Translations under genes and position numbers: made by a program
Notes under the pieces: model-generated
Databases searched by the model: none
What the model was told of the DNA's origin: nothing
What the model saw: only the letters and a program-made list of their open reading frames with translations
DNA from: an uncultured Candidatus Saccharibacteria bacterium
GTDB taxonomy: Bacteria > Patescibacteriota > Minisyncoccia > UBA6257
Reading direction: 5' to 3'
NCBI GenBank assembly: GCA_964618625.1
Contig: CAZUBI010000001.1
Coordinates: 332,266-396,265, forward strand
Length of the DNA stretch: 64,000 nt
Part shown: piece after piece, positions 10,348 through 52,952 of the stretch
Position numbering within the stretch: the first letter of the stretch is position 1
Layout: each line of letters starts with the position of its first letter

Positions 10348-10387
10348 AGTTTATACATCCTAATTGAAAACATTTAAAAAGTCAATT

Positions 10388-19061: not shown

Positions 19062-19177
19062 CAACCCCGTTAGAGATTCTTAATCTCTTTATTTTTGATA
19101 ACCATAGCTGTTAAGCGGTTTCACCTTATAGTTCTTATATTATTGAGACACTTGGCTGAATCTCTAACGGGGTCAAG
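19062..19177 (+). repeat. MITE-like palindromic intergenic element, copy 1 (about 116 bp, 16-bp terminal inverted repeats AACCCCGTTAGAGATTC / GAATCTCTAACGGGGT)
   Basis: Terminal inverted repeats lie at 19063..19079 and 19158..19173. The internal sequence is about 85% identical to the copy at 47158..47279. Confidence 0.5.
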
Positions 19178-24463: not shown

Positions 24464-24712
24464 ATTTTTATACTAATTATTATTTATATATATTAATATA
24501 TTATTATAATTAAGGACGGGTATTTTGTGTATAAATGATTCTTTTTAAAGATAGTATTTATTATAAATGATTTTTTAAATGGATAACTAGTGAATAATTA
24601 ATGAATAATCTGGAGAAAACATGGGGATAGTAATTTAATTTTTGGTTTTTAATTTTCAATTCTTAATTTTATCAAGTATTTATACCTTATTTTATCAACA
24701 ATATATCCACTA

Positions 24713-26095
24713 TCATTTATTATACAGCATTTCTTTTAAAATTATTATTTCCTGACAAAAAACAGGGTCTTTTTCAATTTCAGAAGATATCTTTTTATAT
24801 GCATGAATAACGGTGGTATGGTCACGATTACCTAATTTTTCAGCAATACTAGTATAGGAATAATGTAACTCTTCTCTCAAAAGATACATTACTATTTGCC
24901 TTGGTTTTACTAATTCTTTCTTCCTAGAACGACCCAAAACATCGTCTTCTTTAAGGTCATAAAAAGAAACTATTTTTTTAATCACTTCTTTTGGTGAAAT
25001 ATATTTATTCGATTTATTTAAAATTAGTGACAATATTCTTTTGGTTTCTTCTAAAGAGATTGGACTATTTTTAAGGCGCGCGTGCGCGAGGACCCTGTTT
25101 AATGCTCCCTCTAATTCCCTGATATTCTTTGGGATTGCTTCAGCTATATACTTAAGAACATCATTATTTATAAGATGGGATACATCCTGACTTTTGTTTT
25201 CTAAAATAGCCAACCTTGTTTCAAAATTAGGATAACCAATATCAGCTATCATACCCCCTTCAAATCTAGACCTTAGCCGTTCCTCAATAGACGGAATAGA
25301 TTTTGGCGGGCGATCGGAGGTAAAAACAATTTGTTTATTTTTTTCATAGAGAGTATTAAACGTATGGAAAAGTTCTTCCTGTGTTTTATCTTTTCCAGCG
25401 ACAAACTGGACATCGTCAATTAAAAGAAGGTCAAGATTTCGGAAACTTTTTTTAAATTCCGTCATTTTTTGATTACGGATGGCATTAACCAAATCATCTG
25501 TAAATTTTTCCGAGGTAGCATATAAAATTTTCAATTTTTTCTTTTTTCTTTTCAGTTCATTGCCAATAGCTTGTAGAAGATGTGTTTTTCCCAATCCAAC
25601 GCCGCCATAAATAAAAAGAGGATTATATTTTTTTCCTAAATTTTCTATTACTGCCAAGGATGCTGCATTAGCTAATTCATTATTGGTTCCGACAACAAAG
25701 TTTTCAAAAAGGTATTTTGGATTAAGATTAGTTTCAGGATCAATATTAAATTCTAATTGTTCATCTAAAACTGACGATTTTGAAATAGCTGAAGAACGTT
25801 TTGTTTTTTTAGTTTCTATTTTTTTTAAAGAATCTTTATTAGTAGTAACCAGATATTCAATCTTTTTAATTTTAGGATTCAAGCTATAAAGGGCGTGTAG
25901 AATTTGTTTATGGTATTTATTTTCAAGCCATTCTTTTGTAAAACTAGATGGGACCCCTATAAAGACCGTCCCTTCTTTAATATCTAAAATAAAAGCATCT
26001 TTTAACCATGTTAGGTAATTAGCTTTAGAAATATTCAATTTAATCTCTCCCAAGGCTGCTTCCCAAAGTTCTTTGATATCCATAATTGAAATCAC
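24713..26095 (-). CDS. dnaA: Chromosomal replication initiator DnaA
   Basis: Walker A motif GGVGLGKTHLLQAIGN, an AAA+ domain, and a C-terminal DnaA-box-binding HTH. Confidence 0.9.
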   Translation of the reverse strand: MISIMDIKELWEAALGEIKLNISKANYLTWLKDAFILDIKEGTVFIGVPSSFTKEWLENKYHKQILHALYSLNPKIKKIEYLVTTNKDSLKKIETKKTKRSSAISKSSVLDEQLEFNIDPETNLNPKYLFENFVVGTNNELANAASLAVIENLGKKYNPLFIYGGVGLGKTHLLQAIGNELKRKKKKLKILYATSEKFTDDLVNAIRNQKMTEFKKSFRNLDLLLIDDVQFVAGKDKTQEELFHTFNTLYEKNKQIVFTSDRPPKSIPSIEERLRSRFEGGMIADIGYPNFETRLAILENKSQDVSHLINNDVLKYIAEAIPKNIRELEGALNRVLAHARLKNSPISLEETKRILSLILNKSNKYISPKEVIKKIVSFYDLKEDDVLGRSRKKELVKPRQIVMYLLREELHYSYTSIAEKLGNRDHTTVIHAYKKISSEIEKDPVFCQEIIILKEMLYNK

Positions 26096-39088: not shown

Positions 39089-39193
39089 TCTATCATAAAG
39101 TCAGAATTTTGAAAAGTCAACCTCGGTAGATAGAAGATTATCTAACGGGGCCGATTGACCTTACAGAAAAATATTGATATTATGGAAACAGAT

Positions 39194-39264
39194 GCGGGGT
39201 TAGTATAGTGGTAATATACGACATTGCCAATGTCGAGACGCGAGTTCAATTCTCGTACCCCGCT
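39194..39264 (+). tRNA. tRNA-Gly(GCC)
   Basis: Acceptor GCGGGGT/ACCCCGC; anticodon arm CGACA-TTGCCAA-TGTCG; T-loop TTCAATT. 71 nt. Confidence 0.8.
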
Positions 39265-45691: not shown

Positions 45692-46984
45692 TTATTTAAC
45701 CTTAACCTTTTTAATCTTTTTTGATTCTTTTTCTACTTTATCCTTTACCTTATTAGAACTTTTTTCTTCTTTTTTGATTTTTACTTTTTCTTCTTTTATA
45801 GTTTTTTCTTTGATATTTGCAGTTCCTCCTTCTATTGTTTCTTCTGGCGCAAGAGCAGAACGAATATCAATTTTCCAACCAGTAAGTTTTGCCGCTAAGC
45901 GAACATTCTGGCCATTTTTGCCAATAGCTAAAGAAATTTGATCGGGTGGAACAAACACCCTTACTTCTCTTTTCTCTGAAATAATTTCGGCTTCTTTAAT
46001 TTTCGCTGGACCTAAAGCAGACGCAACATATTTAGTTGGTTCTTCAGAATAAGGAATAATGTCTATTTTTTCACCGTTTAGTTCGTCAATAATAGTGGTT
46101 ACTCGTGTTCCTTTTTGCCCAACACAAGCGCCTACTGGGTCTACGTTTTCGTCTTTGGAATCTACAGCGATTTTTGTTCGGTTTCCCGGTTCACGGGCGA
46201 TAGATTTTATTTCTACTACCCCTTCACTTATTTCAGGAACTTCCATTTCAAAAAGATGAGAGACAAATTTTGGATGACAACGGGAAAGCAAAATCGTTGG
46301 ACCTCGCCCTTTTTCTTCCAAACGAAGAACGTAGAATTTTTTTCTTTCTCCTATTTGATAATGTTCACCTGGTATTCCCTCGTTGGCGTAGAGGACCCCA
46401 AATGTTCTTCCTAAATCAATATAGATATTTCTTCTTTCTATTCTTTGGATAATTCCACTTATTACCATGCCTTCTTTTTCTTTAAATTCTGAAAGAATAG
46501 TTTCTTTTTCCAATTCTTTAAGTTTTTGCAGAATAACTTGTTTGGCAGTTTGGGCAGCTATCCGGCTAAAATCGCTTTTTATCTCCAAAGGCGTAATTAT
46601 TTCTTCATCGATTTTAACGCTTGGCTTTATCTTTTTCGCTTCTTCTAAGAGGATATGCCGTTCAGGATTAAATTTGATCTTTCGATCTTCGTCTTCATTA
46701 ATCTCACCTTCACTCTCCTTCTTTTTTTTTGCTGGCTCGATTTCTTTTTCTTCTTCCTCGGTGATAACAGAAGATTTATCAACAACAACCTTTATTTGAG
46801 AGAATTTTACTTGTCCATCGTCAGAATTGATTTCTGCTCGAATAACTTGCATCTTTTTGCCATATTCTTTTTTATAAGCAGCAGCAAAAGCGACTTCCAA
46901 AGCTTCGAAAACTTTTTGTTCTGAAAGTCCCTTTTCTTCGGCAATCTGACGAATCAATGGTTTTAAAGTTTTTAGATCTAACAT
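45692..46984 (-). CDS. nusA: Transcription termination/antitermination factor NusA with a Lys/Glu-rich C-terminal tail
   Basis: NusA N-terminal, S1 and two KH domains (GQKGTRV, GKNGQNVRLA). Confidence 0.85.
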   Translation of the reverse strand: MLDLKTLKPLIRQIAEEKGLSEQKVFEALEVAFAAAYKKEYGKKMQVIRAEINSDDGQVKFSQIKVVVDKSSVITEEEEKEIEPAKKKKESEGEINEDEDRKIKFNPERHILLEEAKKIKPSVKIDEEIITPLEIKSDFSRIAAQTAKQVILQKLKELEKETILSEFKEKEGMVISGIIQRIERRNIYIDLGRTFGVLYANEGIPGEHYQIGERKKFYVLRLEEKGRGPTILLSRCHPKFVSHLFEMEVPEISEGVVEIKSIAREPGNRTKIAVDSKDENVDPVGACVGQKGTRVTTIIDELNGEKIDIIPYSEEPTKYVASALGPAKIKEAEIISEKREVRVFVPPDQISLAIGKNGQNVRLAAKLTGWKIDIRSALAPEETIEGGTANIKEKTIKEEKVKIKKEEKSSNKVKDKVEKESKKIKKVKVK

Positions 46985-47024
46985 ATTTTTAGATTAGTTA
47001 ATGTTAATTAATTTTATCCCCACA

Positions 47025-47085
47025 TCATAATGAGTACTAAGTGTTTTACACCAAAATATGAAATATGTGCTCATTTGGTGTGGGG
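47025..47085. repeat. Imperfect palindromic element containing the 13-mer TTTGGTGTGGGGG that also closes the tRNA insert
   Basis: CCCCACATCATAATGAGTAC...GTGCTCATTTGGTGTGGGGG. The arms are reverse-complementary with a few mismatches. Confidence 0.4.
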
Positions 47086-47157
47086 GTTTATTAAGAAAGA
47101 CCGCCTTTGGGCGATCTCATCGTTACTTTTTATAGTCTACCTTGTATTTCTTGGAAA

Positions 47158-47279
47158 GTCAACCCCATTAGAGATTTAAGTTTGCTTATCTATTTTCAAT
47201 AACTATAGTCGAGAGGCGACTTCGCCTTATAATCTTTATATTATTGAGAGACTTGGTTGAATCTCTAATGGGGTCAACC
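47158..47279 (+). repeat. MITE-like palindromic intergenic element, copy 2
   Basis: Terminal inverted repeats ACCCCATTAGAGATT and AATCTCTAATGGGGT, with interior homology to copy 1. Confidence 0.5.
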
Positions 47280-47344
47280 CCTGACCTCCCTTGCTATTAT
47301 TTGTAATTTTAGAAGAAAAATATTAAAATAAATAAAACAAAAGA

Positions 47345-47722
47345 ATGAGAATAGGAAAGATTGGTTCTTTTGGAGAAGATAAGACGACAGCTTATCTACA
47401 GAATAGCCATTATCAGATTATACAAAGAAATTTTAAAAGAAAATGGGGTGAAATTGATATTATTGCAAAAGATAAAAAAACAAAGGAAATAGTTTTTGTA
47501 GAGGTTAAAACAAGACAATTAAATTGTGATTATAGTTTAAGCCCAGAAGAAGCGTTAACCTCAAAAAAGGTTCGCCGTTTGAAACGAGCCTTTTTAAGTT
47601 ATTTAAACCGCTATAACTTAGAGGATAAACCCTGGCGTTTTGATTTTATTGCAGTGGAAATTGATAATTTCAATCAAAAACCAATAATCCGGCATTATAA
47701 AGATATATTTTTGGAATTTTAA
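47345..47722 (+). CDS. yraN: UPF0102 / YraN-family endonuclease
   Basis: GEIDIIAKDKKTKEIVFVEVKTRQ, a PD-(D/E)xK core. Confidence 0.7.
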   Translation: MRIGKIGSFGEDKTTAYLQNSHYQIIQRNFKRKWGEIDIIAKDKKTKEIVFVEVKTRQLNCDYSLSPEEALTSKKVRRLKRAFLSYLNRYNLEDKPWRFDFIAVEIDNFNQKPIIRHYKDIFLEF

Positions 47723-47732
47723 GTAAAACCTT

Positions 47733-47777
47733 GCTTTGTGACACGGTAAACATTGTGCGAAACAAAGTGCGAAACAA
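47733..47777. repeat. 45-bp direct repeat, copy 1 (ctttgtgacacggtaaacattgtgcgaaacaaagtgcgaaacaa)
   Basis: The second copy is at 47895..47940 (about 95% identical). The two flank 117 bp. Confidence 0.45.
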
Positions 47778-47894
47778 TATTAACAGAGCCATTTCCTAAT
47801 TTTAGACTAAAGATTTGGCTCAACCATAAACAAACCCGGTATTTTAAGCTGCTTTTGCCTCTATTAAGCCAAAGATTGTTGTTAAAGATATTTA

Positions 47895-47940
47895 CTTTGT
47901 GACACGGTAAACATTGTGTGAAACAAAGTGTGAAACAAAG
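47895..47940. repeat. 45-bp direct repeat, copy 2
   Basis: See copy 1. It ends 6 nt before the 3' end of the split tRNA. Confidence 0.45.
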
Positions 47941-47946
47941 TATTTG

Positions 47947-48141
47947 TGGACTCAGCGAGAATCGAACTCGTGTTTCCGCAACTTGCCCCCACACCAAACG
48001 CATTATTTTGGTGGACCTAAGGAGAATCGAACTCCTGTCTCGGCAATGCGAATGCCGTGTTTTACCACTGAACCATAGGCCCGTATATGCCTTGTGGTGT
48101 GGGGGTAAAAATGCGGTATATTACCACTATACTATGAGCTC
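47947..48141 (-). tRNA. tRNA-Lys(UUU)-like gene split after nt 37 by a 124-nt insert (intron-like) that contains a whole tRNA-Ala; the exons are 48141..48106 and 47981..47947
   Basis: Exon 1 is GAGCTCATAGTATAGTGGTAATATACCGCATTTTTA. Exon 2 is TTGCGGAAACACGAGTTCGATTCTCGCTGAGTCCA. Joined, they give a 71-nt cloverleaf. The D-arm is identical to tRNA-Gly at 39194. The anticodon stem is CCGCA/TGCGG and the loop is TTTTTAT. The insert ends are CCCCCACACCA (48105..48095) and TGGTGTGGGGG (47996..47986), a perfect 11-bp helix. Confidence 0.4.
48009..48082 (-). tRNA. tRNA-Ala(CGC), CCA encoded, nested inside the split tRNA
   Basis: GGGCCTA...TAGGTCC acceptor with G3:U70 and A73. Anticodon arm CGGCA-TTCGCAT-TGCCG. 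T-arm AGGAG-TTCGATT-CTCCT. Confidence 0.75.
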
Positions 48142-48247
48142 ATTAATATATCCCATTATTTAGAGATTTAAAATAGAATAACAAAAATTTCGGCTTAAAA
48201 CAAATTTTAAAGAAATAAAAAAGGAGAGATAAAACTCTCTCTTAATT

Positions 48248-48320
48248 TGGTCGGGGAACCGGGACTTGAACCCGGACTAAATCCTCCCAAAGGACTCGTG
48301 CTACCATTACACTATCCCCC
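48248..48320 (-). tRNA. tRNA-Pro(UGG)
   Basis: GGGGGAT acceptor; anticodon loop TTTGGGA; T-loop TTCAAGT; CCA encoded. Confidence 0.8.
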
Positions 48321-48333
48321 GATATATTTTTGT

Positions 48334-48409
48334 GTCTCCCTGGCAGGACTCGAACCTGCAACCTATTCCTTAGAAGGGAATCGCTCTATCCAGTTGAGCT
48401 ACAGGGAGA
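48334..48409 (-). tRNA. tRNA-Arg(UCU)
   Basis: Acceptor TCTCCCT/AGGGAGA; anticodon arm ATTCC-CTTCTAA-GGAAT; T-loop TTCGAGT. Confidence 0.75.
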
Positions 48410-48478
48410 GCTGATTTTTATTCTATCATATCTTTACTTGAAATAAAAGTTTTTTTGATTTATAATAGCTTAGATGAT

Positions 48479-48552
48479 GGTGGGCGTAGCTCAATTGGTA
48501 GAGCACTTCGCTGTGGCCGAAGTGGTTGGGAGTTCAAATCTCCTCGCTCACC
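48479..48552 (+). tRNA. tRNA-His(GUG) with encoded G-1
   Basis: G-1 plus GTGGGCG acceptor; anticodon arm CTTCG-CTGTGGC-CGAAG; T-loop TTCAAAT; discriminator C. Confidence 0.8.
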
Positions 48553-48562
48553 CTGCCAATTT

Positions 48563-48590
48563 AAAAAGCCTTTATTTAAAAGGCTTTTTA
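48563..48590 (+). terminator. Rho-independent terminator after tRNA-His
   Basis: AAAGCCTTT-attt-AAAGGCTTT followed by TTT. Confidence 0.5.
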
Positions 48591-48680
48591 ATTAGGGCGA
48601 GACAATGTTTGAACTTGTGGTATAATAGAAAAAATAAAGGTCAAAAAATTAACATCATAAATTTAAATAATTCAAATAAT

Positions 48681-52565: not shown

Positions 52566-52952
52566 ATGAAAAAGTTGTTATTGATTTTGGTGATTTTGGT
52601 AGGAATTGTTTTTTTGACTGGATGTATTATAGTGACCGCACCAGATGGCTGCCCACCTGTTACTCCGCCGATCACCCCGCCACCTGTAGAGGATTGTTAT
52701 CTTGTTATTACGGCTGGTTATTGGGTGTGGGGTGGAGTTTATGCAAACGATGAATATGTTGGTGAGATAGATTTTGAAACAAACCCAATAGTAATCATTG
52801 ACGTTTCTTGTGGTACATGGGTGAGGATTTATATAATTGACGTGTGTGGTTGGCAAAGCCATACGGAAATTATATTTATTCATCCAGGTCGAAATGATCT
52901 TGACTTTCCCTACATACCTCAGCCTTATCCCTATGTACTTCGGTCTCGGTAG
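52566..52952 (+). CDS. Small lipoprotein (hypothetical)
   Basis: Signal peptide with lipobox LTGC; Pro/Thr-rich linker; 128 aa. Confidence 0.4.
   Translation: MKKLLLILVILVGIVFLTGCIIVTAPDGCPPVTPPITPPPVEDCYLVITAGYWVWGGVYANDEYVGEIDFETNPIVIIDVSCGTWVRIYIIDVCGWQSHTEIIFIHPGRNDLDFPYIPQPYPYVLRSR

Follow-up and report, generated by a model that had tools for sequence, protein, structure and literature searches.

A MITE-like palindromic insertion has very probably killed the resident tRNA-Ala(CGC) gene of this genome and itself supplies the same isoacceptor; the interrupted gene was, on this reading, never a gene for tRNA-Lys. The ancestral locus would have held one tRNA-Ala(CGC) gene, here called type A, with its own promoter and terminator. 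A short insert with 11-bp inverted-repeat ends would have entered its anticodon loop, both in the lineage of the window (the whole stretch of 64,000 nt that was analyzed) and in that of a relative, L005 (GCA_964479005.1). The loop TTCGCAT would thereby have become TT-TTTA[insert]CAAG-T, so that CGC was lost and the old gene inactivated. The insert would have brought a whole tRNA-Ala(CGC) belonging to another allele, type C, and the decoding capacity lost by insertion would therefore have been restored from within. The old promoter would drive a single transcript, from which RNase P and 3′ processing would free the inner tRNA-Ala(CGC), leaving the outer half-molecules as by-products of a pseudogene in decay. 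The insert appears to belong to a small family of palindromic MITE-like repeats that have the same termini and are insertion-polymorphic in the clade.

Architecture of the Nested Locus

The nest comprises the following features of the window.

48106–48141, minus strand: outer 5′ half, with acceptor, D-arm, and 5′ anticodon stem, followed by TT+TTTA
47982–48105, minus strand: insert E1, 124 nt, between the two outer tRNA halves
48095–48105, minus strand: 5′ arm of the 11-bp inverted repeat, CCCCCACACCA, paired with 47986–47996 in the minimum-free-energy fold
48009–48082, minus strand: inner tRNA-Ala(CGC), type C, called by ARAGORN and scoring 64 bits with the Rfam tRNA model
47986–47996, minus strand: TGGTGTGGGGG, the 3′ arm of the same inverted repeat, and then CAAG at 47985–47982
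47947–47981, minus strand: outer 3′ half, with T38, 3′ anticodon stem, variable loop, T-arm, acceptor, and A73

Read on the minus strand, the outer 5′ half (48141–48106) is GAGCTCATAGTATAGTGGTAATATACCGCATTTTTA and the outer 3′ half (47981–47947) is TTGCGGAAACACGAGTTCGATTCTCGCTGAGTCCA; no CCA is encoded in the outer gene. Between them, E1 runs in the order arm CCCCCACACCA, 12-nt linker, tRNA-Ala(CGC), 13-nt linker, arm TGGTGTGGGGG, and CAAG. Because 74 of its 124 nt are tRNA, only 50 nt of E1 lie outside the nested gene, and it contains no ORF. An earlier note on this DNA had placed the two halves and the 124-nt insert at these same coordinates, had described a complete tRNA-Ala(CGC) inside the insert, and had found the outer D-arm identical to that of the tRNA-Gly at 39194; we agree on all three points. 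It had also described the first and last 11 nt of the insert as exact reverse complements. The arms do form a perfect 11-bp pair, but the 3′ arm is not terminal, as CAAG comes after it.

Relatives Identify the Outer Gene as tRNA-Ala(CGC)

Using yraN (47345–47722) as an anchor, we collected homologues, retrieved their contigs, and compared the tRNA locus. The gene order tig-nusA-yraN-[tRNA locus]-tRNA-Pro-Arg-His is kept in relatives. At the syntenic site, between yraN and tRNA-Pro, L028–L031, L033, L034, and L036 carry an uninterrupted 71-nt tRNA-Ala(cgc), an intact orthologue of the kind that a pseudogene has in close relatives. Four of the relatives with an intact gene are 87–89% identical to the window at the nucleotide level over nusA and tig, where this was measured.

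The intact orthologue reads GGGCTCATAGTATAGTGGTAATATACCGCA-TTCGCAT-TGCGGAGACGCGAGTTCGATTCTCGCTGAGTCCA; outside the anticodon, the joined halves of the window depart from it at three positions and those of L005 at one. Compared with L034, L033, L036, and L028, the 5′ half of the window shows only G2→A besides the former anticodon CGC, which now reads TTT. The 3′ half differs from the intact orthologues by G49→A, which breaks pair 49–65, and by a G→A change in the variable loop. Where the orthologue has the loop TTCGCAT, the window has TT-TTTA, the insert, and CAAG-T, and the anticodon CGC is lost at the junction. Homology extends to both sides of the gene: the downstream trailer, which begins CAAATA, and the upstream promoter-like region are shared by the window and the intact orthologues.

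The pair G3·U70 together with A73 forms the alanine identity set. The outer gene has both, as expected of a former tRNA-Ala. On this comparison the outer gene is a resident type A tRNA-Ala(CGC) gene broken by insertion and never was a tRNA-Lys gene, and the apparent UUU anticodon is an accidental junction sequence. The tRNA-Lys(UUU) assignment made in the earlier note is contradicted both by the syntenic orthologues and by these identity elements.

Signs of Decay in the Outer Halves and of Upkeep in the Inner tRNA

The outer halves have three stem substitutions (G2A and G49A in the window, G43A in L005); each disrupts a base pair, and none of them is compensated. Four intact type A genes together have no broken pair; they show one compensated pair (28–42, in L028) and changes in loops. 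Uncompensated pair-breaking changes, one mark of a pseudogene, are therefore three of three in the outer halves against none in intact orthologues, a small sample. Joining the halves, described before as giving a canonical 71-nt tRNA, in fact yields a molecule with A·C mismatches at 2–71 and 49–65 in addition to G3·U70.

The inner gene shows another pattern. Between the window and L005 it differs at 12 sites, eight of which fall in four doubly compensated pairs. It has G3·U70 and A73, and its CCA is encoded; we presume that this type C tRNA-Ala(CGC) is a functional gene. Taken together, the substitution pattern is, as far as sequence comparison can tell, the signature of an outer gene in decay and an inner gene under selection.

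The Insert Probably Belongs to a Family of Palindromic Elements

The 11-mer arm of E1 occurs three times in the window, against 0.11 copies expected, and the third of these lies in a palindrome at about 47017–47086. A second element, E2, lies about 900 nt from E1.

About 47017–47090, strand not assigned: E2, a cargo-less palindrome of 70 nt in the 5′ leader of nusA, with the start of nusA 33 nt downstream

E1 and E2 have the terminal 13-mer CCCCCACACCAAA in common, which bears out the recurrence of a 13-mer in a palindrome at 47025–47085 that had been pointed out before. E2 is absent from eight of eight relatives compared (L005, L009, L013, L014, L028, L032, L033, and L034), whose spacers read uninterrupted as TTAATTTTA|TTAAGAAAG; in the window, a duplicated TTTA(T) borders E2 on either side. 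A third palindrome, E3, was found in another spacer of the more distant relative L014, with arms CCCCCACACCATAACCG...CGGTTTGGTGTGAGAG. E2, which occurs only in the window, and E3 share CCCCCACACCA(A/T)A.

Unlike E2, E1 has no visible target-site duplication: its two sides differ, with TTTA at one and CAAG at the other. The insertion site has also lost four of its former nucleotides (CGCA). TTTA is probably part of the element or of its target, because TAAAA adjoins the G-rich arm in three of three family members. E1, E2, and E3 have only their termini in common; their interiors are unrelated. E1 has perfect 11-bp terminal inverted repeats in both the window and L005, and copies with common termini are present or absent between relatives, as in MITE-like families. 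Neither the window nor the retrieved loci contained a transposase or an autonomous element with matching ends.

Relatives also vary in whether the nusA-yraN spacer carries a second, unrelated family of MITE-like elements (ACCCCNTTAGAGATT...AATCTCTAANGGGGT). Copies of this family lie at 47162–47274 and 19064–19173 of the window and in the nusA-yraN spacers of L005 and L032. They have inverted repeats of 16–18 nt, ACCCC(A/G)TTAGAGATT...AATCTCTAA(T/C)GGGGT, about 78 nt apart, with GTCAACCCC at both sides, and there is a possible solo end near 39120–39151, beside tRNA-Gly. Judging by E2, E3, and this second family, small palindromic insertions are active in the clade.

E1 and its relatives resemble MITE- and REP-like insertions in their size (70–124 nt), their noncoding nature, their terminal inverted repeats, the inactivation of a gene, the shared termini of their copies, their insertion polymorphism between close relatives, and the 4–5-bp flanking duplication at one copy. 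They differ from them in that E1 carries a whole tRNA gene, interrupts the anticodon loop of a gene encoding that same isoacceptor, and has no target duplication, and in that the interiors of the copies are unrelated. The fallback reading of the earlier note, a pseudogene disrupted by a palindromic mobile insert, holds in essentials once tRNA-Lys is replaced by tRNA-Ala(CGC) as the disrupted gene.

Two other candidates were discarded. The match of CCCCACACCCAA at 52721 is a chance match within a coding region. Site-specific (att/lox-like) insertion and IS200/IS605-like insertion were rejected, as the two junctions differ and the left flanks vary among E1, E2, and E3.

Predicted Transcription Unit and Processing

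Sequences resembling transcription signals flank the nest.

48145–48184, minus strand: promoter-like hexamers, TTGTTA-18-AATAAT and TTTAAA-16-TATATT, upstream of the outer 5′ half
47807–47873, minus strand: hairpin and U-run, a likely terminator, which folds and is conserved across relatives

A region homologous to the upstream one precedes the intact tRNA-Ala of L033, L034, and L036 and the allele types B and D described below. In L028, tRNA-Ala follows tRNA-Pro after 6 nt, and the promoter-like region is missing. We infer that the hexamers and the hairpin delimit one transcription unit, the same as for the intact alleles in relatives. When the transcript is folded, the 11-bp helix is extended to about 17 bp and closes a domain that contains the inner cloverleaf (z = −4.5).

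Several further features of the transcript and of its surroundings were observed. Within the outer 5′ half, the junction TTTTT makes a terminator-like hairpin and U-run out of the D-arm/anticodon-stem region (48113–48127, minus strand; GTGGTAATATACCGC ATTTTTA), which could attenuate read-through into the inner tRNA. In the nusA leader (47093–47120, minus strand), every relative has the conserved hairpin GATCGCCCAAAGGCGGTC, followed by TTTCTT, downstream of a conserved, −35-like GTTGACTTT; the hairpin resembles an attenuator or a terminator in the leader. Arrays of TTTGTTTCAC(A/G)C, together with perfect palindromes (for example, GTTTCACGTGAAAC in relatives), occupy 47733–47776 and 47891–47940 on the minus strand and are found in all related loci. 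The terminator-like hairpin that lies between yraN and the tRNA-Ala locus has these arrays on both sides, and many metagenome contigs end precisely in them; their 9-mer TGTTTCACA departs from a consensus DnaA box at a single position. The cumulative GC skew is lowest over a broad interval, roughly 24–48 kb. Close to its first minimum, 24479–24763 is very AT-rich, with overlapping palindromes and a 52-nt imperfect inverted repeat, and is a possible replication origin region.

Allele Turnover at the tRNA-Ala Locus

Two further, unrelated tRNA-Ala(CGC) alleles, each 62–63% identical to type A, occupy the spot in some relatives: L032 has type B, and L039 and L040 have type D.

L032 3620–3691 and L009 11574–11645: type B tRNA-Ala(CGC), GGGGATGTAG...
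L039 2174–2246: type D tRNA-Ala(CGC), GGGGACGTAG...

The type B gene of L009 stands behind the same promoter and has been pushed away from the spot by inserted DNA. Because both flanks are homologous up to the gene borders in L032 and L039 (in L009, the upstream flank only), the tRNA-Ala gene has apparently been replaced repeatedly. At 10379–10800 of L009, a 5-nt tRNA 3′ remnant, GTCCA, lies by yraN just before the conserved CAAATAC trailer, and a 232-aa ORF and other DNA separate this remnant from the type B tRNA-Ala. The remnant looks like the trace of another insertion event at the tRNA-Ala locus. On these comparisons, the locus is generally unstable. By wobble rules, tRNA-Ala(CGC) is probably dispensable in a genome that has tRNA-Ala(UGC).

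Conservation of the Shell between Carriers

The nest is also present in L005, L008, and L017, with the same arms and junctions and with diverged linkers and cargo. L005 is 88.9% identical to the window over nusA and tig, so that coding DNA differs by 11%; its insert is about 111 nt long, against 124 nt in the window. The two carriers differ at 4 of 71 positions in the outer halves, at 0 of 22 in the arms, and at 0 of 10 in the junctions, compared with 12 of 71 in the inner tRNA; the linkers also have indels. A single old insertion followed by neutral decay does not predict a shell that is better conserved than its cargo, and the pattern therefore needs recombination, independent insertions, or constraint. 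The better-kept shell could reflect recombination that exchanged the interior, diverged cassettes that inserted independently at the same site, or selection on the shell. Statistics on this conservation are weak because there are only two independent carriers.

A tree of nusA and tig placed the two carriers with bootstrap values of 23–37, too low to tell sisters from non-sisters or one insertion from several. L036 shares a 65-aa ORF insertion with L005, yet its tRNA-Ala is intact, a pattern that hints at mosaicism. In the surroundings of the locus, the tRNA-Pro(TGG) genes of the window and L005 are identical (48334–48408 and L005 11441–11515), but the neighboring tRNA-Arg(TCT) genes are strongly diverged (48248–48321 and L005 11355–11426). 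An ORF of 59–65 aa lies between tRNA-Pro and the tRNA-Ala promoter in L005, L036, and L039; the window lacks it.

The near-identical arms, junctions, and shell beside strongly diverged cargo and linkers would be explained by a self-compensating mobile tRNA cassette that targets tRNA-Ala(CGC) anticodon loops, by a shell selected as a scaffold or as an alanylatable two-piece tRNA-like RNA, or by both. We regard this broader reading as unlikely. Taken by itself, the proposal that selection keeps the tRNA-Ala shell and the 11-bp helix is decidedly unlikely. The selected product would be an RNA scaffold, a tRNA-like fold that stabilizes the transcript or guides RNase P/Z in processing the embedded tRNA, or an alanylatable two-piece tRNA-like RNA, and not a decoder. 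Such selection would fit the four differences in 103 nt of arms, junctions, and outer halves, set against far more diverged linkers and cargo and 11% divergence of coding DNA, and it would fit a fold that retains the helix and the inner cloverleaf (z = −4.5). Every stem change in the shell, however, breaks a pair; close relatives do without a shell and have intact A, B, and D alleles behind the same promoter; and with two independent carriers only, recent recombination explains the conservation equally well.

A Larger Integrated Element as an Improbable Source of the Insert

In actinobacteriophages with tRNA-dependent lysogeny, a host tRNA gene is disrupted by insertion and is not rebuilt (Guerrero-Bustamante & Hatfull 2024, PMC10865867). 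E1 might by analogy be the scar of a larger phage or ICE that integrated into the tRNA-Ala anticodon loop with its own tRNA-Ala and was later reduced to about 120 bp, an origin that we consider quite improbable. The logic of disruption and same-isotype replacement is that of tRNA-dependent lysogeny (PMC10865867): in both cases, inserted DNA breaks a tRNA gene without rebuilding it, and the same isotype is supplied. The locus is, moreover, an insertion hotspot, as the 232-aa ORF and other DNA between type B and the GTCCA remnant of L009 illustrate, and the allele at the site switches among A, B, C, and D. In contrast to the phage systems, the insert here is about 120 bp, with no phage genome and with inverted repeats rather than att cores. 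Its 124 nt hold no ORF, integrase, or phage gene, and the two carriers would need identical deletion end points. Viral contigs yielded neither the arms-plus-gap pattern nor the type C tRNA, and scanning them with a 15-mer (TTTA plus arm) gave chance matches only. A MITE-like unit is favored over att sites because the ends are perfect inverted repeats that are common to tiny cargo-less palindromes.

Intron and Split-tRNA Readings

We also evaluated the reading in which a tRNA-Lys(UUU) is split at 37/38 by an intron that houses a tRNA-Ala and is either BHB-spliced or, after release of the inner tRNA by RNase P/Z, acts as a two-piece molecule held by the 11-bp helix. This reading is highly improbable. 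ARAGORN does call tRNA-Lys(ttt) on the joined halves, the insert would sit at the canonical 37/38 position if the junction is so read, the 11-bp helix would bring the ends together, and two species share well-conserved arms and halves. Against it stands, first, the identity of the gene: its orthologues are tRNA-Ala(CGC), and G3·U70 with A73 would give an alanine acceptor that reads Lys codons. Second, the body is damaged, with two A·C mismatches in the window and a different one in L005, none compensated. The joined product thus combines A2·C71 and A49·C65 with the alanine identity set and a UUU loop, where a BHB intron would leave a sound tRNA with matching identity. Splicing would also be unable to restore the CGC anticodon, because neither junction contains CGC.

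Searches for an intact counterpart and for an intron were likewise negative. Among 185,579 species-representative genomes, the 20-mer from the D-arm through TTTTTA occurred only in the contig of L005; in the metagenome collection, the same 20-mer with one position as N gave only chance matches outside tRNA genes, in coding DNA. Neither the species genomes nor the metagenome scan yielded an uninterrupted tRNA with the body of the outer gene and a UUU loop. With its intron and pseudogene options, ARAGORN reported the inner tRNA-Ala alone on the native region. Rfam detected no intron family at the gathering threshold and none at E ≤ 10 over 46950–48620; below threshold, there were tmRNA-like scores for the Ala-type acceptor/T-arm only.

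A BHB consists of two 3-nt bulges on opposite strands with a 4-bp helix between them, at the exon–intron junctions. The fold of a junction mini-substrate instead gave a 5-bp stem, a 1×1 loop, 3 bp, a 2×1 loop, and the 11-bp helix, so that the resemblance to archaeal BHB introns seen in the earlier note does not hold. Group I introns have a conserved catalytic core (P3–P9), are usually longer than 200 nt, and are detectable with Rfam Intron_gpI. A group I intron was rejected on the lack of any Rfam intron match at E ≤ 10 and on the mere 50 nt of the insert that lie outside the nested tRNA. In a split tRNA of the Nanoarchaeum type, each half has a gene of its own with a leader complementary to that of the other, and the halves once joined form the functional isoacceptor of the cell. 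We rejected this arrangement as well: the halves here are 124 nt apart behind one promoter-like site, and the unsplit gene of relatives is tRNA-Ala(CGC). The two-piece tRNA-Lys proposed earlier fails on those same orthologues, on the uncompensated stem breaks, and on the alanine identity elements.

What the locus shares with archaeal BHB introns and Nanoarchaeum split tRNAs is a break beside 37/38 and a GC-rich helix that joins the halves. It differs in having no bulge-helix-bulge, a bacterial host, halves that are contiguous in one transcription unit, and a joined product that is defective and misidentified (Ala acceptor, UUU loop). The tRNA introns known from Patescibacteria belong to self-splicing group I and are quite unlike E1 in size and structure (PMC13011429). 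They occur in the same phylum and, like the present case, break the anticodon loop in a way overlooked by standard tRNA finders (PMC13011429). E1 differs from them in that it has no group I core, in that 74 of its 124 nt are tRNA, and in that the ancestral CGC could not be restored.

That the nest is an assembly or chimera artifact is barely conceivable: many metagenomic contigs end near the locus, but their ends fall at the flanking direct repeats and the tRNA cluster and not at the nest, the 301-nt region containing the nest has the same sequence in four independent Logan assemblies of separate samples, and the same architecture occurs in a different species-level relative (L005), in separate NCBI and JGI records.

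Implications

Reading the locus as a MITE-like insertion into a tRNA-Ala(CGC) gene does away with what would have been an extraordinary claim, namely that a bacterium has a tRNA-Lys spliced by proteins or working in two pieces. The case also illustrates that tRNA halves joined by eye or by ARAGORN can invent an isoacceptor out of junction sequence. The locus is not a new kind of tRNA intron; it combines MITE-like gene disruption with same-isotype tRNA compensation, both of which are known. It appears to be a modest but uncommon case in which a palindromic insert of ~120 bp breaks a tRNA gene and a cargo tRNA with the same anticodon replaces its function. More broadly, tRNA-Ala(CGC) alleles have been swapped repeatedly at this locus among related Patescibacteria. 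If such cassettes are common, they would be a route of tRNA gene turnover in reduced genomes, as well as a source of misannotation.
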